This document shows, in pieces, positions 1 to 58,875 of a stretch of 64,000 nt of DNA. Location: contig DATGGL010000129.1 of the NCBI GenBank assembly GCA_035308605.1, forward strand, positions 3,332 to 67,331, read 5' to 3'. The notes beneath the pieces were generated by a model that ran no database searches, had not been told where the DNA came from, and saw only the letters and a list, made by a program, of their open reading frames with translations. This stretch comes from Bryobacteraceae bacterium. GTDB lineage: Bacteria; Acidobacteriota; Terriglobia; Bryobacterales; Bryobacteraceae. Within the stretch, counting starts at the first letter, position 1, and each line of letters starts with the position of its first letter. A program made the translations under genes and the position numbers.

Positions 1-2211
1 ATCGACGCGGCTCAGGAGTTAACGCTTTCGATCAACAATGTCCGCGAGGTATTCCAGTCCGAGAACGTGAACGCCGAAACCTCGCCCGTCGATGTCAGCC
101 AGACGCAGAGCCAGGAACAGCTTACCGGCACCGAGGTGAACGACATGCCGTACGCCAACAGCCACAATCTGCGAAACGCGCTGCAACTGATGCCGGGAGT
201 CCTGCAAGATGCTACCGGGAATTTGCATGTTAACGGCGCATCTGAAAGTCAGGTGCTGTATCTTCTGAATGGCTTCAACATCACCAACCCGATCTCCGGC
301 CAGTTTCAAACCGTTCTGGCGGTGGAAGCAGTCCGTTCGGTGGAACTGGCTTCGGGACGCTATTCGCCGGAGTTCGGGAAAGGGTCGGCCGGCGTCCTGG
401 CGGTGAACACTCAGAACGGCACGGACGCCTTTCACTACACGGCGACAGATTTCATTCCTGGACTTCGCGTCCAACAGGGCCTTCAGTTCGGCAACTGGTA
501 TCCGAGACTGGGAGTCTCAGGACCCATCGTTCGGGGACGAGCGTGGTTCTCCGACACCTTCGATTCCGAATACACCTCGGGGTTCGTCCCGGGACTTCCG
601 AAGGGGCAGGATACGCGAACCGGGTGGACCGGGAGCAATCTGCTGCATACGCAGGTGAATCTGACTGCGGCGAACATTTTGTTCGCCGATTTTCTGGCGA
701 ATATCAGCGATCAGAGCCGGGTAGGACTCGGACCGTTGAACCCGGTTTCAGCCACATCCACCGTCGATACGCGCGAGTATCTCTTCAGCGTCAAAGATCA
801 GGTCTACTTGGGCCGCGGTGTGCTGGTGGAATTCGGTTATGGGCACACTTATTTTTCGAACCTGCAAACGCCGCAGGGTCCGAATCTATATGTGATTTCT
901 CCGGAGGGCAACAGCGGAAACTATTTTTTGAATTCCAGTCAGACCGCCGCGCGGGATCAAGGGATGATTCACGTCTACCTGCCGCAATTCCAGTTGTTCG
1001 GCGCGCATCACCTGGAAGCCGGGGGCGAGGCCGACGTGGTGCGCTACACGGGCAACTTTCACCGCACGGGTTACCAGGTCCTGGGGCTCTTCGGCCAGCC
1101 GATCTCGCAAACGTTATTTCCAACGCCGGCGCAATTCGACGTCGGCGATAGTCAGGTGGCGGCTTATCTGATGGATACCTGGCGCGTCTCCAAAAGCTTG
1201 CAATTCAGCTTGGGTGTCCGGCAGGATTGGGACCAGAAAGTAAGCGACCTGGCCTGGTCGCCGCGATTGGGCTTCTCGTGGTCTCCCTTTGCGTCGGGCC
1301 ACACCCGCATTTCCGGAGGCTATCTGCTGACACACGATACGATCACGATGGATATTTTCGGACGGCCGCTCGATCAGACCGCGGTTACGACGACATATTC
1401 GCCGAACGGCGGCCCTGCCGGTCCGCCGGGGCTCACCACCTTTACGATCGGCAATGCGCCTTTGGTCCTGCCGCGGGCGAGCAATTGGACGCTCGATGTA
1501 ACGCATCAAGTGTCGGCGCACGTTCACGTGACCGCAAAATATCTGCGGCGGCGCGGAACCGATGAGTTCGCATTCATCAACGCCCTGGCTCCCAATGCTC
1601 CTCCTTCGCTACTTCCTTTGCCGAGCGTGGACACGGCGGCGATATATCAGTTAACGAATCTCCGGCGCGACGAGTATGACTCCATTCAGATGTCGATTCG
1701 CCAGAAGTTCACCGGCCAATATGAGTGGATGGCGTCCTACACGCGGTCGCGGGCCGTTTCGAATGCGGTCCTCGATCCCAACATCACGCAGCCGTTGCAG
1801 GTGCTCTCGAATCTCGTGCCGATGCCTTGGGATGCGCCGAACCGGCTCCTGGCGTGGGCGTATTTCCCGTTGCCCCGGAAGAACTGGGGGAAGAATTGGG
1901 CGATATCGGCACTGGTCGATATGCGGAGCGGGTTTCCATTCTCAGTGCGCTATCAAACCGGGATCATCGCCGGCCCGGTGGATTCATTTCGGTATCCGAT
2001 GAATTTCGACCTGAATCTGGCGATTGAACGAATGATTACGCTGCACGGGTATCGATTCGCGCTTCGCGGCGGAATCAACAACCTCACGAACCAGACCAAT
2101 CCCACCGCAGTTAATAATGTCATCGGCGCGCCGCAATTCTTGCAGGTACTGGGGGCGGAGGGCCGGCATTTTGTCGTACGGGTCCGGTTCTTCGGCCGCG
2201 CCCAGAAATAA
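1..2211 (+). CDS. TonB-dependent outer-membrane receptor (N-terminus cut by window start)
   Basis: Frame 1 is open from nt 1 into track ORF 67..2211. Plug-like NDMPYANSHNLRNALQLMPGV and LHVNGASESQVLYLLNGFNITNP, followed by long Gly/Tyr/Asn-rich barrel-like sequence. Confidence 0.8.
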   Translation: MDAAQELTLSINNVREVFQSENVNAETSPVDVSQTQSQEQLTGTEVNDMPYANSHNLRNALQLMPGVLQDATGNLHVNGASESQVLYLLNGFNITNPISGQFQTVLAVEAVRSVELASGRYSPEFGKGSAGVLAVNTQNGTDAFHYTATDFIPGLRVQQGLQFGNWYPRLGVSGPIVRGRAWFSDTFDSEYTSGFVPGLPKGQDTRTGWTGSNLLHTQVNLTAANILFADFLANISDQSRVGLGPLNPVSATSTVDTREYLFSVKDQVYLGRGVLVEFGYGHTYFSNLQTPQGPNLYVISPEGNSGNYFLNSSQTAARDQGMIHVYLPQFQLFGAHHLEAGGEADVVRYTGNFHRTGYQVLGLFGQPISQTLFPTPAQFDVGDSQVAAYLMDTWRVSKSLQFSLGVRQDWDQKVSDLAWSPRLGFSWSPFASGHTRISGGYLLTHDTITMDIFGRPLDQTAVTTTYSPNGGPAGPPGLTTFTIGNAPLVLPRASNWTLDVTHQVSAHVHVTAKYLRRRGTDEFAFINALAPNAPPSLLPLPSVDTAAIYQLTNLRRDEYDSIQMSIRQKFTGQYEWMASYTRSRAVSNAVLDPNITQPLQVLSNLVPMPWDAPNRLLAWAYFPLPRKNWGKNWAISALVDMRSGFPFSVRYQTGIIAGPVDSFRYPMNFDLNLAIERMITLHGYRFALRGGINNLTNQTNPTAVNNVIGAPQFLQVLGAEGRHFVVRVRFFGRAQK

Positions 2212-49053: not shown

Positions 49054-49154
49054 CTTGAAGATTGGACTTGGCCCGATCGGCGGTACAGAAGTTAGAGAGC
49101 CACATGGGCTTCGGCGTTTCGGACCTCCTGCGGCGCAACCACCCGGCCGGAGCT

Positions 49155-49415
49155 ATGGTATCTCTTGATTTCATGGCAACAGACGAAGAACTCCGATCAG
49201 AGATCGAACGGCTCCGCGCCGAGAACGAGGCGCTGAAAAAACCACGCGGCAACGTGTACTTGAAGGTGAGCGAAAAAGGCGGGCTCTCAGTGTACGGCAT
49301 GGGCCGTTTCCCGATCACCCTCTACCGCGAACAATGGGAAAAGCTCTTGGGCATGGCCGACGAGATTCGCAACTTCATCCGCGAAAACGATCAGAGCCTG
49401 AAGAAGAAAGAATAG
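49155..49415 (+). CDS. Small coiled-coil hypothetical protein
   Basis: DEELRSEIERLRAENEALKK then GNVYLKVSEKGGLSVYGMGRFPITLYREQWEKLL. Start ambiguous: ATG 49155 or ATG 49173. The track start 49062 is a TTG. Confidence 0.5.
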   Translation: MVSLDFMATDEELRSEIERLRAENEALKKPRGNVYLKVSEKGGLSVYGMGRFPITLYREQWEKLLGMADEIRNFIRENDQSLKKKE

Positions 49416-49606
49416 TTGCTGTCCGGCTCAGAACGCGGTCGAACAACCGCCCCAGGGACGGAGGCGGCCTTGGAGTCAGAGAAGGTGAGATTGGGGATCC
49501 TGCAGCAGAGTGGACACTGAGTCCCATTTGCGGACAGCCTCTTCGCCAGAGATCCTAATAGAATCAACGTAATTTCATTGCGATCGAATTGCGATGTACT
49601 TACGCC

Positions 49607-52027
49607 ATGGCATCGCCACTCACGCACACGCTTCGCCAGTTTCGAAGGGATCCTGCTTTCAACTTGACGATAGTCGGAACGCTGGGGCTGACTGTTGGCT
49701 TGAGCACTGCAGTCTTCAGCATTATGGACGCGGTATTCCTTCGCCCGCTCCCGTACAAGGAGCCCAGCCGCATCTTTTCGTTGCTCACCACCTCGCCCCA
49801 GGGCTTTACGCAGCCGGCCTCCTACCTTGAGTTCGTCGACTGGCGTCGCGAGGCCGCCCCTTTTTCGAACGTCGCCGCGTATAACTCCTTCGCGAGCGTG
49901 AATGCCGAGACGGGCGGCAGTGCCGTTTCGCTGCATGCTGTCACAGCGAGCGACAATTTCTTCGACGTGCTCGGCGTGAGACCGGTGCTCGGCAGAACGT
50001 TCGAGAAAGGTGAGGAGGATCCGGGACGAAACTTTGTGGTTGTGCTGAGCCACGAAGTCTGGCAGGATCTGTTCGCGGCGCGGCCTGAGGCAATCGGCGC
50101 GAAAATCAAACTGGACGGTCAGCCCTACACCGTGATCGGCGTGATGCCGGAAGGCTTCCGTTTCCCCATAAGCCGGACCCAGGCTATCTATTTTCCGCTG
50201 AAGATGCTGAAGAACCAGCGCGAGGGCCGTGGGAATCACTGGCTGCCGACGGTTGCCCGGCTCGCTGAAAGGGTTTCGCGCGAAGACGCTCAAAGTCGAC
50301 TCAACCAGGTATTCGCGCACCTAAGCGATGCATATCCGGAGACCAAAGGTCGTAAAGTTCAACTGATTGACTTGGCGACGTTCACCGTCGGCGACTCGCG
50401 GGCACGCGGCGCCTTGCAACTGCTCGGTGTCGGAATTGCTGCCTTGATTGCGCTCGGATGCGTGAACCTGGCCGGTTTGCTGCTGGCGCGCGGGGTGCGC
50501 ATGCAGCATGAGGTTGCGATCCGAAGCGCGCTCGGGGCAAGCCGGAGCCGGCTGATGGCCCGGCTGCTGTCGGAGAACATCTCCTACGCCATCGCCGGCG
50601 GCGCAGTGGGCTTGCTGCTTGCCGACGCCCTGTTGGGCGCAACGCGTGTCCTACTCGTCTCGGCCCTCAATCGCGGATCAGAGGTGCGTCTGAACGGGAC
50701 GGTGCTGACGGCGGCTCTCGTGGTTTCGATGCTCACGACGCTGCTTGCTGGTTTGTGGCCGGCGTTCCGGTTTTCCGCCACATCTGCCGCCACTTCCCTC
50801 CGCTCTGGAAACCGTGTTGGAATGGACCGCGGGCAAAGCCGCCTGCGCGCGGGGTTCGTGTGCGTGCAAGTATCCCTGGCGATGGTCCTGCTGGTTACCT
50901 CCGGCCTCGTTTTTCGCGAGCTGTCCCGTTTGCAGCACGGCGACTTCGGATTCGATCCATCGTCGATACTGGCCGCCGAGATCGATCTTTCGCCGGGATC
51001 TTATGAGAATCGTGACGTCGTGACGGATTTCTACACGCCCATGCTGGAACGCGTGACCGCAATCCCCGGGGTTCGAGCCGCGGGTCTCATTCAAATTGTG
51101 CCGATCCAGAACTGGGGCTGGAACAGCAGCGTCGAAATCGTCGGTCAGCCACCGAGCCCGCCGGGCCATGAGCGCAACGCCGAGTTTCGAATCGTCACGT
51201 CCGGTTACTTCTCCGCTTTCGGAATCCGTCTGCTGCGCGGCCGCCTTGTCAACGAGAAAATCGATACGCCCACGTCGCAACGCGTTGTAGTCGTGAATCA
51301 GCGCTTTGTCGAGCGTTTCATCCCCGCTGGTTTGGATCCTTTATCGCAGTCGATCCAGGACGGCCAGGCCAAGGTGGCGATCGTGGGTGTTGTGTCCAAT
51401 GTCCGGCAGAGCATTTTTGGTCCGCCGCTGGCTGAGACTGACATGCCGATTTCGCAGATCCCGCACGATCTGCGCAATCAGTTTCTGGCCGGAATGCAAT
51501 TAGTGGTTCAGACCACCAACGCTCCGAACGCGATCATCCCGGACCTCAGGCGCATGTTCGGGGAACTCGACCGGACTCTGCCCTTCCGGACGCCGCAAAC
51601 CATGGACGACGTCGTCGCGGGCGCGCTGACTTTACAACGGCTGGAGAACTGGGCGTTCGTAAGCTTCGCTGTCCTGTCGCTAGTCCTGGCACTCCTCGGG
51701 CTCTATGGGCTGATCAGTCATGAAGTGGAATCGTCGCGCCGCGATATTGGAATTCGCATCGCGATCGGAGCATCGCGCGGCCGTATTTTCAGAGTGATCT
51801 ACCGGCGCGTCGCGGCGATGCTGGTGATCGGAGTCGCCGGTGGAATCGTGGCTACCTGGTCTGCTAGAAAACTTATCGAGTCGGTGGCTCCTCTGCAGGG
51901 AGCGGGCAGTATTGCAATGATCCTGGCGCTGACCTTGGTTTTTGCCTTAGTGGCCTGCTTCGCGGCCTTCATCCCCGCCCGACGGGCCGCGACTGTTGAT
52001 CCGATCGAAGCGCTGCGTTGCGATTGA
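49607..52027 (+). CDS. ADOP-family duplicated FtsX/MacB-like ABC permease
   Basis: About 806 aa with two MacB_PCD + FtsX halves. N-terminal LRQFRRDPAFNLTIVGTLGLTVGLSTAVFS. C-terminal RRDIGIRIAIGASRG...IPARRAATVDPIEALR. Confidence 0.85.
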   Translation: MASPLTHTLRQFRRDPAFNLTIVGTLGLTVGLSTAVFSIMDAVFLRPLPYKEPSRIFSLLTTSPQGFTQPASYLEFVDWRREAAPFSNVAAYNSFASVNAETGGSAVSLHAVTASDNFFDVLGVRPVLGRTFEKGEEDPGRNFVVVLSHEVWQDLFAARPEAIGAKIKLDGQPYTVIGVMPEGFRFPISRTQAIYFPLKMLKNQREGRGNHWLPTVARLAERVSREDAQSRLNQVFAHLSDAYPETKGRKVQLIDLATFTVGDSRARGALQLLGVGIAALIALGCVNLAGLLLARGVRMQHEVAIRSALGASRSRLMARLLSENISYAIAGGAVGLLLADALLGATRVLLVSALNRGSEVRLNGTVLTAALVVSMLTTLLAGLWPAFRFSATSAATSLRSGNRVGMDRGQSRLRAGFVCVQVSLAMVLLVTSGLVFRELSRLQHGDFGFDPSSILAAEIDLSPGSYENRDVVTDFYTPMLERVTAIPGVRAAGLIQIVPIQNWGWNSSVEIVGQPPSPPGHERNAEFRIVTSGYFSAFGIRLLRGRLVNEKIDTPTSQRVVVVNQRFVERFIPAGLDPLSQSIQDGQAKVAIVGVVSNVRQSIFGPPLAETDMPISQIPHDLRNQFLAGMQLVVQTTNAPNAIIPDLRRMFGELDRTLPFRTPQTMDDVVAGALTLQRLENWAFVSFAVLSLVLALLGLYGLISHEVESSRRDIGIRIAIGASRGRIFRVIYRRVAAMLVIGVAGGIVATWSARKLIESVAPLQGAGSIAMILALTLVFALVACFAAFIPARRAATVDPIEALRCD

Positions 52028-52068
52028 AGCTTCTTATTTTGGCGATGTCTTTATTTGGGCGATGTCGT

Positions 52069-52326
52069 TCAGACGCGATCGCCAGAGGCCGACACAATAT
52101 CCGCCCGGTGCTCTTCCTCCGCGATGACATAGTCGCGGACATCATCCAGAGTGTATCCGGCGCACTCCGCGTCAGACACAATGGCGTCCAGCTCTTGGCA
52201 CACTTCGGACCGGATATCCGGGAACTCGCCAAGCGGGTCGCGCAGATCACACTCAACCAATCGCTCATACGCCAGCTTAAATCTGCGAGCAAGCGGATGA
52301 AACTTCTCAATTCTGTTACGCGCCAT
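52069..52326 (-). CDS. Acidic hypothetical protein (85 aa)
   Basis: ATG start with a GGTGAG SD-like motif 3 nt upstream. 41 nt downstream of the DUF98-like gene. No domain recognised. Confidence 0.5.
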   Translation of the reverse strand: MARNRIEKFHPLARRFKLAYERLVECDLRDPLGEFPDIRSEVCQELDAIVSDAECAGYTLDDVRDYVIAEEEHRADIVSASGDRV

Positions 52327-52367
52327 TTCTCACCCGCTTGTTGGATGATGTCGAGGACCTCATCGTT

Positions 52368-52934
52368 TCAACTGCAAGCAAATATCCGCTCAGATACATC
52401 ACCTTGGAGCGCAAGATCCGCGGGAAAGTATTCCGAGATAACCATTAGTGGCGCACCGTGCTGAAGCACTCGATAGGAACGAGCCAGGAGGATCGCATCA
52501 AGACCACAACCGAAGTGAATCGAGAGCTTACCGGCGGGCTCTCGCCAAAACCGGAGCACCTGTTTTGCGGTCTCCAACCGATATTCGCTCCAGAGCCGCC
52601 CGATGGGCTTCCCGGATTCGACCAGGTCGCTGCGCATTGGCGCCGGTAGCCGGTTGAGGGCGATCCAGGATTGCGCGAAGACAAAGTTTCGCAGCGAACT
52701 CGCGCCTTGCAGAAGAATCTCGCGGCGCATAACCGGAAGACCGGAATCCTGCGCAAGACCGACAGGCCCGTCATCGGCCGATGAGACATCCACCGAAAGC
52801 CTGACCAACTTGATTGGTTCTAAGAACGCTGCCTCCAGCGCATCCGTCAAAGTGCCATCGTTCACCAGGAGAAGCCGCTGAAGAAGGTTCAACGACCGGC
52901 CCCCGATAGCATCTAATTGCTCTAAAAACGACAT
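52368..52934 (-). CDS. DUF98 / chorismate-pyruvate-lyase-like (UTRA-fold) protein
   Basis: LLLVNDGTLTDALEA, RREILLQG, FAQSWIALNRLP, KPIGRLW, SYRVLQHGAPLMVISEYFP. ATG 52934 (TTG 52952 possible). Confidence 0.65.
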   Translation of the reverse strand: MSFLEQLDAIGGRSLNLLQRLLLVNDGTLTDALEAAFLEPIKLVRLSVDVSSADDGPVGLAQDSGLPVMRREILLQGASSLRNFVFAQSWIALNRLPAPMRSDLVESGKPIGRLWSEYRLETAKQVLRFWREPAGKLSIHFGCGLDAILLARSYRVLQHGAPLMVISEYFPADLALQGDVSERIFACS

Positions 52935-52998
52935 CCGATGCAAGTGTGGCAAGCGACGAATTCACTACGCTTGCATGGTGACGCCGGCGACCTGTCCT

Positions 52999-53211
52999 CT
53001 ACGGTTTCGATTTCCATCGTTGCTTGCGACCCAACCTGATTTCGACTTGCCGGGCGCAACCGGGACACGCCATGCGTTGATCACCTTGAAGCCGGTCGAG
53101 CGTTTGAAGGAATTCATGCCCACAAAGAGGGCAGTGCAGGCCGATCTCCGTTTCGCCCGCGAGGCCGGCTGGCGGTGACGGTAGCCATTCGTCGTCCGGC
53201 GGGGTATGCAT
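52999..53211 (-). CDS. Small zinc-ribbon protein (about 70 aa)
   Basis: CPLCGHEF...(19 aa)...CPGCARQV. Start uncertain: ATG 53211 has no SD, and the track TTG 53289 lies inside the upstream terminator's T-tract. Confidence 0.45.
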   Translation of the reverse strand: MHTPPDDEWLPSPPAGLAGETEIGLHCPLCGHEFLQTLDRLQGDQRMACPGCARQVEIRLGRKQRWKSKP

Positions 53212-53284
53212 TGGATCAAATGTTGCATTCACGCCTGCCGCACCGCAATTTGCCAATCGGCAAGGGTGGTGAGAAGCGGATGTA

Positions 53285-53328
53285 TCCAATGAAAAAACGG
53301 GGCCTGGTGCCGAAGTGCCGGCACCAGG
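53285..53328 (-). terminator. Hairpin + T6 downstream of the 56-aa zinc-ribbon gene
   Basis: Minus strand: CCTGGTGCCG-GCACTT-CGGCACCAGG (10-bp perfect stem), CCCCG, TTTTTT. The 5-nt spacer before the T-tract lowers confidence. Confidence 0.5.
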
Positions 53329-53351
53329 AGTGGGTTTGTGCCTGCGGCGTT

Positions 53352-53522
53352 TTAGTGATGTGCGCCTATCGATGCCTCGCCTGCCGGCGCGCGGAGCTTT
53401 ACTTTATCCTCCGCTGTTCGCTTTCTGGCTGCCTCGATCCTGTCCGAACACTTAACACAAATCGGTTTGCCGTTTTCGTGCAGCTCCGTCTCGGCTCCGC
53501 ACTTTGAACACTTGTAGTTCAT
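53352..53522 (-). CDS. 56-aa zinc-ribbon protein (below the 60-aa track cutoff)
   Basis: Hand translation: MNYKCSKCGAETELHENGKPICVKCSDRIEAARKRTAEDKVKLRAPAGEASIGAHH. AAGGAG SD 6 nt upstream of the ATG. CxxC-x13-CxxC. Terminator-like hairpin downstream. Confidence 0.65.
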   Translation of the reverse strand: MNYKCSKCGAETELHENGKPICVKCSDRIEAARKRTAEDKVKLRAPAGEASIGAHH

Positions 53523-53847
53523 GTTCTACTCCTTGGTGCGTAACGTTAGGTTGGACGGCTCGGCTGGACAGAGGTTACTACCCTCCAGGGTGGGCAAAGA
53601 AAGAGGACTGATCCGAAGACGGGCGGCACCAGGATGACTCAAAGTCGCCTCTGAAGTTCTTTGCCTATTTGGCTAATAAATTGATTTCCGCGGAATTGCA
53701 TCATTGCAAATTAGACGAGGCGACCAGCGGATCTCGTGGCGCACCTGTCAGTTACAAAGGGAGGTTTAGCGAATCATTAACTCAGCCTGAAAACATAGAC
53801 TACGTGCACACCTTCCTGTATCCTCCTATTCATTCTGTCCTACTCGA

Positions 53848-54477
53848 ATGGCCTCGTTGAGTCCTGTTCGCATCCTGGTTACCGAGGATCATCTCATCGC
53901 TCGCAAAGGGCTGACCGCAATCATTAACGCTCGAACGGATCTGGTCGTCGTTGCGGAAGCGGTTGACGGTGAAGACGCCATCCAGAAATTTCGGACCTAT
54001 CAGCCGGACGTCACAATCATGGATATGCGAATGCCTCGCATGAGTGGCTTCGATGCAATAGGAGCAATCCGAGCTGAATTTCCTTCGGCGAATATCATTG
54101 CAATCTCTGCATTTGGAGGGGACCAAGACATCCGCCGGGCCCTAAAGCTTGGAGCTCGATCCTATCTCTTGAAAGGGGTCTTAGAGGACCAGTTGATCGA
54201 GGCGATTCGATCGGCTCACGCAGGAAAGAACTACCTTCCTCCAGAAGTGGCGGATTCGCTCAAGTCTCCGCTTCCGGCTCCGAATCTTACCGCTCGCGAA
54301 CTGAATGTTCTAACCTTGCTGGCCCGGGGACTCCTTAACAAGCAGATTGCGGCAGAGCTTGGAATCGCGGAGTACACGGTCAAGAATCATGTGAAGAAAA
54401 TTCTGGAAAAGCTCGGTGTCGATGATCGGACACAAGCTGCAACCTCTGCCATTATGCGAGGTGTCATTCACATTTGA
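53848..54477 (+). CDS. NarL/FixJ-family response regulator (REC + LuxR HTH), no cognate kinase in window
   Basis: VRILVTEDH, VTIMDMRMPRMSG, IIAISAFG, YLLKG. HTH LTARELNVLTLLARGLLNKQIAAELGIAEYTVKNHVKKILEKLGV. Confidence 0.85.
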   Translation: MASLSPVRILVTEDHLIARKGLTAIINARTDLVVVAEAVDGEDAIQKFRTYQPDVTIMDMRMPRMSGFDAIGAIRAEFPSANIIAISAFGGDQDIRRALKLGARSYLLKGVLEDQLIEAIRSAHAGKNYLPPEVADSLKSPLPAPNLTARELNVLTLLARGLLNKQIAAELGIAEYTVKNHVKKILEKLGVDDRTQAATSAIMRGVIHI

Positions 54478-54515
54478 TTTGATCTGTAACCGTTTACAGT
54501 TGTGGCTGGCTAGAG

Positions 54516-54565
54516 CTATATTCCATTCGGCTTATTGCCGATAGTTATATTCCATTTGGCGTATT
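54516..54565 (+). promoter_or_regulatory. Two 21-nt direct repeats 29 bp apart, flanked by TAGAGCTAT copies
   Basis: CTATATTCCATTCGGCTTATT (54516) and TTATATTCCATTTGGCGTATT (54545), 18/21 identical. TAGAGCTAT at 54511 and 54582. Function unknown. Confidence 0.4.
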
Positions 54566-54647
54566 ACTCATTGAGGCCCTATAGAGCTATTGTTGACTCC
54601 CGGCCATTCACAGTAGACTCCCGTATACGTTGTTTCTATTTTAGCGA

Positions 54648-54691
54648 AGCGGCGGTGTGATCCCCCCCAAACGATCTTCCGCCGCCTTTTT
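54648..54691 (+). terminator. Rho-independent terminator-like hairpin 170 nt after the regulator gene
   Basis: GCGGCGG...(inner GATC/GATC pairing, C-rich loop)...CCGCCGC followed by C-TTTTT. Confidence 0.6.
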
Positions 54692-55042
54692 GTGTTGCTA
54701 GCTATGCTCGCCGAAATGAATCGGGAGCTACAGGGAGTCTTTTTTGGTAAATCACAATTCAAGACTTAGATTGTTTTTAAGGTTACGCACATGCAACATG
54801 TGAATGACAACGTAGATTGCCTAAAATTTGTCTTGACGGATCGCCGGTCAGCATACATTATTTTCTACAGGGCTTTTACAAGGCCTTTGTAGTCTGGCCG
54901 ATCGCGGATTTAGCTATCGGGGTGCCGTGGGAGCGGCAGCCCAGTGACACCGGTTCGGCGTGGAGAGTAGAACTCTGGTTATCTCGCTATCTGCCAGTTG
55001 AACTTTTTTGGAAGCTTCGAAAACGAAAATTCAGGGGAGAGT

Positions 55043-58000
55043 ATGAAACAACGTTTGTCTCGGACGCTCAGCAGCATTCTTCTGTTCGTTTGTTTCCTCG
55101 TCGGCACACAGGCCTTCGGCCAGCTTATTACCGCCGACATCTTAGGCACAGTTACTGACGCGGCAGGTGCGGTGGTTCCAAACGCTCGAGTTACGGTAGT
55201 CAATACCGGCACTTCTGAAACCCGCACAGTTCAGACCAGCGGGTCGGGCGATTTCGTTATCAACCTGCTACCGCCGGGAACATACACTGTCACGGTGGAG
55301 GCTCCGGCTTTCAAGAAATCGGTTACCAACATCACCCTGGTCGCCGGCGACCGCGCGCGCACCGACACCCAGTTGCAGGTCGGCGAGTCGACCCAGATCG
55401 TCGAGGTTACGGCCACTACGCCGGCGCTTCAGACCGATAGCTCGACTCTGCGAGATACGGTAGCTGCGGCTTCGGTGCAGGATCTTCCCCTCAACGGCCG
55501 CAACTACGTACAGTTGGTTTCGACGGCCCCCGGCGCCGCGGCCGGTCCTTCGAACTCGATTCTCAGCGGAACCCGTCCCGACGAGCGTCGCCAGACCGCG
55601 GCGGTGGTGGCCAACGGCATGAACGAGACGTTCAACAATCACCTGGTCGACGGCATGGACAACAATGAGCGTGAGCAGCTCACGATTCTCTTCCGCCCTT
55701 CGATCGATTCGATTGAAGAAGTCAAGATCGATACCAACAACTACCCGGCTGAAGTCGGCCGCGCCGGTGGAGCGGTCGTCAACCTCATCACCAAGTCAGG
55801 CAACAACGCCTTCCACGGCGGCCTCTACGAGTACTTCCGCAACGACCAGCTGAACGCCAACGACTTTTTCGCAAACGGCGCCGGCATCGCACGCCCCGAG
55901 TTCCGCCAGAACCAGTTCGGCGGTAGCGTAGGCGGCCGCATTATCAAAGACAAGACCTTTTTCTTCGTCGATTTTGAGAACCTGCGAGTGATTCAGGGAA
56001 AGAACACTGGCCTGCTCGCCGCCCCCACGGCCTACGAACTGTCGCATCCCGGCGACTTCTCCGACCAGGGCGGACCCATCATTCCTGTCTCCCAGATCGA
56101 TCCCGTTGCGCTCAAATACCTGTCGCTATTCCCGGCTGCCAACATTCCGGGTGCTCCGCCGACCGCGAACTACACCGGCAATGTGAACAATCAGTATTTC
56201 GCGAAGACCGTTGACGCGCGCGTCGATCACCATTTCTCGGACAAGGACTCGATGTTCTTCCGGTTCTCCTACAATCCGACGACCACGGTCTACCCGACGC
56301 TCTATCCGCCGGTCAAGGAGTTTGGCGTTACGATCAACCCAGGCAACGGCATCTATCCCGGCAACTCAACCGAAGACTCGCAGGCGTACATGGTTGACTT
56401 CGTACATATCTTCAGGCCTACGCTGGTCGGCGAATTCAAAAGTAGTTTCACCCGCCTGAATATCGCCACGCTTTCGGCGAACCAAGGCAGCAACCTGTCG
56501 GACAAGTTCGGAATTCCGGGCGCGGACGTGAACCAGTATGTCTCGGGCCTGCTGAACGTTTCGATCAACGGATACACCGGGCCGGGAAGCTGCAATACTC
56601 TGGGCGATTGCACATCGGTGCCGATCTACGACATCAACAATGTTTTCCAGCAAGAAGGCTCACTGGCCTGGACCAGAGGCAGCCACAACATCAAGTTCGG
56701 TGCTGGCCTTATTCGCCGTCAGATGAACTACTACCAGATCCAGAACGGCACAGGTCAGTTCACATGGAGCGCCGCCACAGCGGGCGCGCCACCGAACAGC
56801 CTTGCGAACTTCCTGCTGGGAGTTCCAACCACCATCACCCGCCAGTTCCCGTTCCAGTATCAGTACTACCGGACTTGGGAACCCCACCTCTATGTGCAGG
56901 ACGACTGGCATGCGACTCGCAAGCTGACTCTGAACCTCGGCCTGCGCTGGGATCACATTGGCGAGCTCGCCAGCGCCACCGGCCAGCGCTCCAATTATCA
57001 GATCGACACGAATACGTTCTGCATCAGCTCCTACGCCTGCGTGCAACCGCACTGGAAAGATTTCCAGCCCCGTATCGGCTTCGCCTATAGCGCGGGTAAG
57101 GGCCTCGTGGTACGCGGCGGTTTCGGCCTCAGTTATTTCGCTCAGGACTTTGCGGCCGGCGCTGTGAATCTGCCTAACCCGCCATTCGTGGGCGTCAACT
57201 TCACCTGCTCCCCCGCGGCTCTGACGGGCTCCACCGTTTGCCCTGCGGGCGTCCATTTCCTATCGCAAGGTCCGCCACCCATCACACCGCCTAACATCCC
57301 CCAGTTGCTGGGGTCAGTCGCGGGCGGACTGCAGAGCTCGCTCAGCGCCAAAGCGGACACCTATCCGAACGCTAACGTCATGCAGTATAACCTGACGATA
57401 CAGAAGCAGCTCGGCCAGAACGTGTTTACCGTCGCCTATGTGGGGTTGCTGGCCCGTCACCTGTATTACGTCCCGAACGTCAACCTGCCGAATCCTTCCG
57501 GGTCGGCCGTAACGCCGAACTATCTTCGAATTGCCACGCTGCCCAACATCACCGGTATCAGCCTGTACGGCACCGGCGGAGCCGCCGAATACAACGCGGC
57601 TCAGTTCGTCTTCGAGCGGCGCTATTCGAAGGGTCTGACCATCAACGCCAATTACGTCTTCGCTCGCAACCTCACCAGTATTACCGACAGCTCGATCAGC
57701 AGCGCGCCAGTCGCGACGGTAACGAACAACCGGAGTTACGACTGGGGCAACTCGGACATCGGCTTCAAGAACAAATTCACGATACGCGCCAATTACGAGC
57801 TACCTTTTGGCAAGTCCGCAAAGGGACTTACAAAGTTCGCGATTGGCGGATGGCAGGTCAACACCATCGCTTTCTGGCAATCCGGCCAGCCGTTCTCGGT
57901 CCTGGATGGCCAGAATCTGATCAATCTGCCCAACGTCAGTTCGGATCGCCCGAACATGGTCTCCGGCCAGTCGTGCACGGTTTCGAACCCGACGATCCAC

Positions 58001-58798: not shown

Positions 58799-58875
58799 TG
58801 GTGGGCTTGACAGAACTCGAATCTGTGACCTCCTGCGTGTCAAGCAGGCGCTCTAACCAACTGAGCTACAAGCCC
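58799..58875 (-). tRNA. tRNA-Val (anticodon GAC), CCA encoded
   Basis: Reverse complement is GGGCTTGTAGCTCAGTTGGTTAGAGCGCCTGCTTGACACGCAGGAGGTCACAGATTCGAGTTCTGTCAAGCCCACCA. It folds by hand into a cloverleaf: acceptor 7 bp, D 4 bp, anticodon stem CCTGC/GCAGG with loop TTGACAC, T stem ACAGA/TCTGT. Confidence 0.95.

Follow-up and report, generated by a model that had tools for sequence, protein, structure and literature searches.

Four small genes lie on one strand of a low-GC stretch

We analyzed a 64,000-nucleotide (nt) stretch of a Bryobacteraceae genome, hereafter the window, which forms part of one contig (C129) of a 5.4-Mb assembly in 377 contigs. Four small open reading frames (ORFs) lie on its minus strand: zr56 (53352-53522, 56 amino acids, aa), zr70 (52999-53211, 70 aa from its ATG, the frame remaining open to a TTG at 53289, which gives 52999-53289 and 96 aa), a gene of the DUF98 family PF01947 (52368-52934, 188 aa from the ATG at 52934, with a longer frame of 194 aa from a TTG start, 52368-52952), and ac85 (52069-52326, 85 aa). 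They sit between a MacB-like permease gene (49589-52027, plus strand), which converges on ac85, and the gene of a NarL-type response regulator (53848-54477, plus strand), divergent from all four; 64 nt separate zr70 from the DUF98 gene, and another 41 nt lead from the DUF98 stop to ac85. A first-pass annotation had placed the four ORFs correctly on one strand and had read them as a possible small-molecule sensing or toxin-antitoxin-like module. We find instead an orphan gene from an established enzyme family together with three genes for small proteins, in a species-specific, low-GC stretch.

The region had also been described as more AT-rich than its surroundings, and its 2-kb bins are indeed the two lowest in G+C content (GC) of the 32 in the window (52-54 kb, 0.554; 54-56 kb, 0.538), the remaining 30 ranging from 0.565 to 0.633. 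The deepest trough, at 53.5-55.0 kb (0.476-0.512), corresponds to the regulator and its flanks, and GC across the four small genes is 0.54-0.59. Set against 2,655 long ORFs of the same genome, the GC at third codon positions (GC3) of the four ORFs, 0.61-0.65, falls at the 7th-14th percentile, and that of the regulator, the most AT-rich gene of the stretch, falls at the 1.5th (0.54).

The PF01947 protein is most likely a chorismate pyruvate-lyase

On sequence grounds the DUF98 ORF is clearly a genuine gene, with a codon score of 0.17 and 41 homologues whose starts match the ATG at 52934. Its product matches PF01947 (Rv2949c-like chorismate pyruvate-lyase) at 51.5 bits, for a cut-off of 22, with residues 29-180 aligned to profile positions 1-145 of 149; this is its sole Pfam match, none being found to the UbiC-type family PF04345 at E <= 1. 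The AlphaFold2 (AF2) model (predicted local distance difference test score, pLDDT, 84.2; predicted template-modeling score, pTM, 0.81) contains no additional domain. Foldseek returned as its top match 2NWI (E 8.2e-12, template-modeling score, TM, 0.89 on the target, root-mean-square deviation 1.9 Å over 158 columns, 26% identity), next the UTRA domains of DasR and PhnF (E 6e-8 to 3e-7), and then, with E-values of 2.5e-5 to 4.4e-5 and TM 0.55-0.65, the E. coli chorismate lyase structures 1G81, 1G1B, and 1FW9. The predicted structure has the chorismate-lyase/UTRA fold, so that the family match and the model agree with the earlier description of a DUF98/UTRA-fold protein of 188-194 aa.

Two residues of this protein, Arg77 and Glu174, are invariant across 21 aligned sequences. 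In an hhalign alignment with E. coli UbiC, whose probability is 7.5%, RREILL lies over LREILL and PIGRLW over PLGRYL, and Arg77 aligns with UbiC Arg76. In the E. coli enzyme, 4-hydroxybenzoate is bound by Arg76 and Glu155 (PMC7879144). Activity has been demonstrated for two members of the PF01947 family: Rv2949c (PMC7205293) and Sll1797, the chorismate lyase of Synechocystis (PMC12998194). From its family, its fold, its conserved residues, and the tested relatives, the window protein most likely cleaves chorismate to 4-hydroxybenzoate and pyruvate.

Rv2949c of Mycobacterium tuberculosis gives PF01947 its name, and the window protein belongs to the same Pfam family, a likeness that rests on the family and not on a pairwise alignment with Rv2949c. 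The p-hydroxybenzoate formed by Rv2949c is activated by the adenosine monophosphate (AMP)-ligase FadD22 (PMC7205293). A similar arrangement occurs in 15 of 51 loci that carry relatives of the window gene (30 from genomes and 21 from metagenomes, 28-82% protein identity), in 14 of them with a carrier protein. Around the window gene, in contrast, there is no gene for an AMP-ligase, a carrier protein, or a polyketide synthase. With E. coli UbiC the protein has the fold in common, and it keeps the arginine of an RExLL motif and may keep the glutamate of a C-terminal xE(Y/L)F motif, which lies one column off UbiC Glu155 in the alignment of 7.5% probability; unlike UbiC, it has no PF04345 match and no adjoining ubiA. 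The model of the cyanobacterial enzyme Sll1797/PlqC, which acts in plastoquinone synthesis (cyano_chori_ly, NF037993), aligns over residues 22-179; its score of 31.9 bits falls short of the cut-off (175), and the protein is accordingly not an equivalog. Unlike the host of Sll1797, moreover, the window organism is an acidobacterium that does not photosynthesize. The closest solved structure both by sequence (5.3e-22) and by fold is AF1396 of Archaeoglobus fulgidus (2NWI), but this archaeal DUF98 protein has no assigned function and contributes no mechanism. The UTRA domains of DasR and PhnF, two regulators of the GntR/HutC group, also have the fold; whereas these regulators carry a fused winged-helix DNA-binding domain, the window protein is a single domain of 188 aa.

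The DUF98 family occurs in at least two unrelated contexts

Among the 51 loci, the family is found both in aryl-starter clusters and beside corrinoid-reactivation genes. An AMP-binding gene adjoins the DUF98 relative in 15 of the 51, and AMP-binding and PP-binding carrier protein genes are found together in 14 of the 30 genome loci. These AMP-ligase loci come from Acidobacteriaceae, Korobacteraceae, and Nostoc, and the acidobacterial ones add an O-methyltransferase, glycosyltransferases, and a 3-deoxy-D-arabino-heptulosonate 7-phosphate (DAHP) synthase/chorismate mutase. Ten of the loci (L007-L012, L016, L019, L044, L046) contain genes for a GDSL lipase, a carrier, an amidohydrolase, an AMP-ligase, the DUF98 protein, and an O-methyltransferase, together with PMT_2, GT2, and DAHP synthase/chorismate mutase genes. 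These Acidobacteriaceae/Korobacteraceae loci resemble the Rv2949c-FadD22 arrangement of mycobacteria and look like a p-hydroxybenzoate-primed cluster of glycolipid type.

The second context is found in four of the 51 loci, all from Bryobacterales (55-58% identity), where the DUF98 gene comes directly after genes for RACo, a reductive activator of corrinoid proteins, and an 84-aa PF13769 protein (L002 3198-6528 and L004 3183-6522; in L003 and L005 the RACo/PF13769 genes lie upstream of the DUF98 match). A B12-binding protein is also encoded in two of the four (L002 and L004). In a tree of 44 rows, from which L016, L025, L031, and some P rows were left out, the window protein groups with four metagenome proteins (support 100/100), within a 15-row clade (98/99) that includes the RACo-linked rows and stands apart from the AMP-ligase clades. 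This link to corrinoid reactivation hints that some DUF98 members may not be lyases.

The genome itself indicates what the product would not be used for. Its only UbiA-like gene (on C349; G000:C349:256-2261) adjoins MqnE (509 bits, cut-off 434.55) and is predicted to be of the MqnP type; menaquinone is thus made by the futalosine route, and the DUF98 product is not for ubiquinone. A PobA-like 4-hydroxybenzoate hydroxylase (G000:C292:640-1800), which at 527 bits falls just under its cut-off of 538.7, suggests that the cell can degrade 4-hydroxybenzoate as well. Thirteen larger ORFs were scanned over 36.7-64 kb, and none belongs to a quinone or aromatic pathway, as the first-pass annotation had noted for the nearby genes; over the same interval neither a prenyltransferase nor an aryl-AMP ligase lies beside the DUF98 gene, and elsewhere in the genome we found no close counterpart of the AMP-ligase-type neighbors. 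An orphan PF01947 gene in an acidobacterium that makes only menaquinone raises the question of what purpose free 4-hydroxybenzoate serves in soil bacteria.

ac85 belongs to a rare family and occurs apart from the lyase gene

The protein encoded 41 nt further on has the length and the acidity first described for it, with an isoelectric point (pI) of 4.63 and 20 D+E against 12 K+R residues. Nine close homologues (67-99% identity) were found, and a profile search of 1.84 billion representatives returned 21 proteins. Of the 21, 14 are small (72-112 aa) and have the pattern DxCDPDxDFP and an EEARADFEAE-like pattern, the inspection of patterns having covered these 14, with seven long multi-stretch matches outside it. 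The cluster records consist only of metagenome entries named "hypothetical protein." ac85 has no family in Pfam, NCBIfam, PHROGs, or PADLOC and no match in 72,556 plasmids. Its AF2 model is a three-helix structure (pLDDT 80.8) with no Foldseek match in the Protein Data Bank at E <= 0.001 (best, CnrXs at 0.67). In a VIA-align wide search its best Z of 8.7, to the influenza NS1 RNA-binding domain, is within the range common for helical models, and in the ESM Atlas its best score of 0.77 is under lead level.

The genome contains a second copy, of 89 aa and 74% identical, on the minus strand of contig C59 (G000:C59:27361-27606; L054 1477-1746). It adjoins a fragment of an IS3-like orfA, with short elements nearby, and no DUF98 or ribbon gene lies beside it; the DNA likeness of the two copies is confined to window positions 52103-52351. 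Between them, the ratio of nonsynonymous to synonymous substitution rates (dN/dS) is 0.13 in the annotated frame; four further frames give 1.4-2.7, and the antisense frame with the same third positions gives 0.25. ac85 is thus a real gene under purifying selection, the representative of a rare family of helical acidic proteins of about 80 aa that lies outside Pfam, NCBIfam, PHROGs, and PADLOC, and it can exist without the lyase gene. As a separate observation, the short elements around the second copy each occur about three times, and their translations have peptide motifs in common.

zr56 and zr70 encode predicted zinc ribbons

Both remaining ORFs have two CxxC pairs spaced 10-25 residues apart, the pattern that we used to define a ribbon, and both proteins are predicted zinc ribbons, for which metal binding is likewise a prediction. 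Against all Pfam and NCBIfam ribbon families every score of either protein lay below the cut-off. For ORFs of only 56-85 codons the codon-usage model lacks the power to decide on either zr56 or zr70.

zr56 has the length and the spacing originally reported, CxxC-x13-CxxC (C5/C8 and C22/C25), at the N terminus of a basic protein (pI 8.8). An AAGGAG Shine-Dalgarno sequence lies 6 nt upstream of its ATG, the codon score is neutral (0.005), and the exact protein is recorded as called in other assemblies. Among 250 other genomes of the order, 18 have frames of 57-130 aa that start with its ribbon motif (E <= 0.01; 17 of 249 without genome G431), with up to four copies in some genomes, and the motif was present in nine of nine loci inspected. 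zr56 is probably a real gene and, judged by this motif, belongs to a putative family of small N-terminal-ribbon proteins scattered over related acidobacterial genomes. About 25 nt past its stop, an intrinsic terminator (53293-53328, minus strand) was identified by a terminator scan and RNA folding: a G+C-rich hairpin of 10-11 bp followed by a T-run (-24.4 kcal/mol, z-score -2.1). Since this hairpin and T-run follow it, zr56 is probably a transcription unit of its own. At another locus (L073 877-1689, minus strand), a gene next to recA encodes a 270-aa protein that joins an N-terminal ribbon of zr56 type to a MEDS sensory domain.

zr70 is the weakest supported of the four, and the evidence leans modestly toward its being a real gene. 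The ORF and its two CxxC pairs (C27/C30 and C49/C52) are as first described, apart from the spacing, which is x18 and not x19. zr70 has no clear Shine-Dalgarno sequence, and its codon score of -0.008 falls to -0.40 over the 26 codons preceding the ATG. Under each of three starts tried it was absent from a collection of 15 billion proteins, and a word search for homologues found none. Six-frame searches gave four credible relatives (CPxCG...CPxC, E 5.5e-7 to 8.7e-5 per genome), out of five loci inspected. The small zinc-binding proteins YnfU/ECs_2282 (NF038384, NF047912) are, like zr70, short four-cysteine ribbons, and these models score 25.1 and 20.8 bits over the ribbon; both scores are under the cut-offs (36 and 37), so that zr70 is not a member. 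A ribbon ORF of zr70 type at one locus (L079, match 1501-1644, minus strand) converges on a MacB-like permease gene, much as the window genes do; this may be coincidence because such permeases are abundant in these genomes.

The adjacency of two ribbon ORFs is in itself not beyond chance. This genome has 45,785 stop-to-stop frames with a length of 50-130 aa, and the CxxC-x10-25-CxxC pattern occurs in 86 of them, or 0.016 per kb, from which simple arithmetic gives about 0.7 adjacent pairs expected genome-wide.

The four genes are neighbors rather than a conserved system

A module of four genes working together, as initially proposed, is left unsupported by the terminator after zr56, by the solo copy of ac85, by the absence of co-occurrence, and by the lack of any meaningful match in PADLOC (best E 0.015) or PHROGs (best E 0.0026), where the best hits fall on zinc-ribbon residues. 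Using tblastn (E <= 1), we found relatives of zr56, zr70/96, or ac85 in 0 of the 30 genome and 0 of the 21 metagenome loci that carry a DUF98 relative. In locus L032, where the relative is 82% identical in protein and 81% in DNA, the likeness ends at the ORF borders, and the flanks, 334 nt upstream and 157 nt downstream, are unrelated. The homologues of ac85 lie on contigs of 42,290, 16,309, and 5,435 bp, and, as indirect evidence, no DUF98 cluster lists a contig of such a size. Relatives of zr56 and zr70 adjoin genes for Fpg, CtaG, a sigma-54 activator, RecA, the MEDS fusion, a MacB-like permease, and others, and in these neighborhoods none lies near a DUF98 gene.

The stretch is also accessory. 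A search of 60 relatives' genomes returned no DUF98 protein, and ac85 was found in none of 200 genomes from the family and none of 400 from the phylum; for 93 genomes of the genus (92 without G269), none of the DNA matches listed, beyond which come 112 weaker ones, falls within 51840-53866. The DUF98 and chorismate-lyase literature that we searched contains no description of a DUF98 plus zinc-ribbon set. The first-pass annotation had held that its module would fall if the four genes did not co-occur in other genomes and the small ORFs lacked conservation or expression: no co-occurrence was found outside the species, whereas the small ORFs are conserved, ac85 strongly, zr56 at the level of its motif, and zr70 weakly. 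Taken jointly with the lyase reading, we consider it fairly likely that the four genes are neighbors in an accessory, species-specific stretch and not a conserved system.

The explanation as a whole, in which we place the same fair degree of confidence, would run as follows. An accessory stretch of about 1.8 kb, of atypical base composition and specific to the species, would hold four neighbors that form no system. zr56 would be transcribed alone and ended by its own terminator, and behind that terminator zr70, the PF01947 gene, and ac85 would probably form one transcript, as their spacing suggests. The DUF98 protein would act as a stand-alone chorismate pyruvate-lyase, binding chorismate in a pocket with Arg77 and Glu174 and releasing 4-hydroxybenzoate and pyruvate; the former would feed a specialized product encoded elsewhere or act as a free phenolic acid. 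Its gene may be a mobile "supply enzyme" that was recruited to at least two pathways elsewhere and landed here without partners, next to ac85, which would encode a selected helical acidic protein independent of the lyase.

Several observations weigh against this explanation. With respect to the enzyme, Glu174 falls one column off UbiC Glu155 in the hhalign alignment (ISEYFP versus LTELFLP; probability 7.5%), no dedicated consumer of 4-hydroxybenzoate was found in the genome, and the best AMP-ligase match there (34% identity, contig C212) sits among genes of beta-oxidation type. With respect to the set, many of the 21 metagenome loci span 1-3 kb, which makes the absence of partners there weak evidence, and of the closest DUF98 relatives (79-84% identity, P0002-P0008) L032 is the one whose flanks were compared. 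Four other metagenome runs, from moss, two soils, and a mine in four studies, bridge the locus at 95-99% identity in the same order (permease, ac85, DUF98, zr70, zr56, regulator), and one contig of 5,989 bp carries zr56, the DUF98 gene, and ac85. DNA as similar as this indicates stability in one species and not conservation of a module; the set is stable in the species, and selection for it is conceivable. Finally, a functional zr70-DUF98-ac85 operon would be compatible with gaps as short as 41 and 64 nt that contain no terminator.

Such a lineage-specific operon, in which the small proteins would act on the lyase (in product release or gating) or on its product, is the best surviving of the alternatives, and we regard it as unlikely. 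The common strand, the short gaps, the order kept in four metagenome runs and one other contig, and the purifying selection on ac85 (dN/dS 0.13) are all consistent with it. All the DNA that keeps the order, however, is 95-99% identical and comes from one species; ac85 or zr70 relatives occur at 0 of the 51 DUF98 loci, L032, at 82% identity, lacks both flanking genes, the selected second copy of ac85 stands without a DUF98 gene, and zr70 itself has no Shine-Dalgarno sequence, a neutral codon score, and no source that calls it.

It is less probable still, and in our view distinctly so, that the DUF98 protein is a UTRA-like sensor, a non-enzyme working with the ribbons or with the NarL-type regulator. 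The UTRA domains of DasR and PhnF (6e-8 to 3e-7) do outrank E. coli chorismate lyase (2.5e-5) among the structural matches, the nearest solved relative, 2NWI, has no assigned function, and relatives in Bryobacterales adjoin corrinoid-reactivation and not aromatic-biosynthesis genes. Yet the tested PF01947 members are lyases, Arg77 and Glu174, the putative counterparts of the UbiC residues that hold the product, are invariant across the clade, the protein carries no fused DNA-binding domain, and the 15 loci with an AMP-ligase, 14 of them also with a carrier, have the arrangement of a starter-unit supplier.

Slightly more doubtful again is a cassette of zr70, the DUF98 gene, and ac85 that makes free 4-hydroxybenzoate as a signal, the small proteins controlling the output and the orphan regulator belonging to the same circuit. 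Here the lyase has no pathway partner, the species-specific, low-GC stretch includes the regulator, and ubiquinone synthesis makes no demand for the compound. Signaling by UbiC-made 4-hydroxybenzoate is reported for Shigella sonnei (PMC10269604), but there the signal is made by UbiC, whereas the window enzyme is of the other chorismate-lyase family.

A toxin-antitoxin-like or defense role, for the whole set or for DUF98 and ac85 as a pair, is hardly credible: small adjacent genes lie on one strand of a low-GC accessory stretch, ac85 is small and acidic like many antitoxins, and its second copy adjoins an IS3-like fragment, but PADLOC and PHROGs gave no meaningful match (best E 0.015 and 0.0026, both on ribbon residues), no toxin-like domain was found, the pairing is not conserved (0 of 51 loci; L032), no integrase, phage, or plasmid gene is present among the ORFs scanned nearby, and ac85 is unmatched in 72,556 plasmids. 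With the module dissolved into unrelated neighbors, the locus carries little weight as a system.

Flanking genes and other features of the window

The regulator gene encodes a receiver domain (Response_reg) and a GerE domain and scores 144.8 bits against the NarL model, below the cut-off of 250. No kinase gene adjoins it, the gene beyond encoding a TonB-dependent receptor, which agrees with the divergent orphan NarL-type regulator of the first-pass annotation. We treat the regulator as a neighbor of the four genes. On the other side, the permease gene and ac85 converge, and the interval between their stops is occupied entirely by a tandem repeat of two copies of a 17-nt unit (52034-52067, family D3, 88% identity), in which the terminator scan found no terminator-like hairpin. 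Rfam gave no match at E <= 1 across 51500-55300, and a promoter scan of the minus strand found none, a result that is uninformative.

A tRNA-Val gene (GAC; 58799-58875, minus strand) lies about 0.5 kb past the TonB-dependent receptor gene. A tRNA-linked island was considered and rejected: no direct repeat of the tRNA longer than 15 nt, and no repeat of its 3' end, occurs elsewhere in the window, and no integrase is present among the ORFs scanned. In the AT-rich gap between the regulator and TonB-receptor genes, a 29-nt unit is present in two tandem copies (54507-54564, 79% identity), a candidate that could be a binding site of the regulator. Finally, the interval between an amylase-like gene and the permease gene contains an ORF of 117 aa (49062-49415, plus strand), which matches no Pfam family and has a strong coding score of 0.25.

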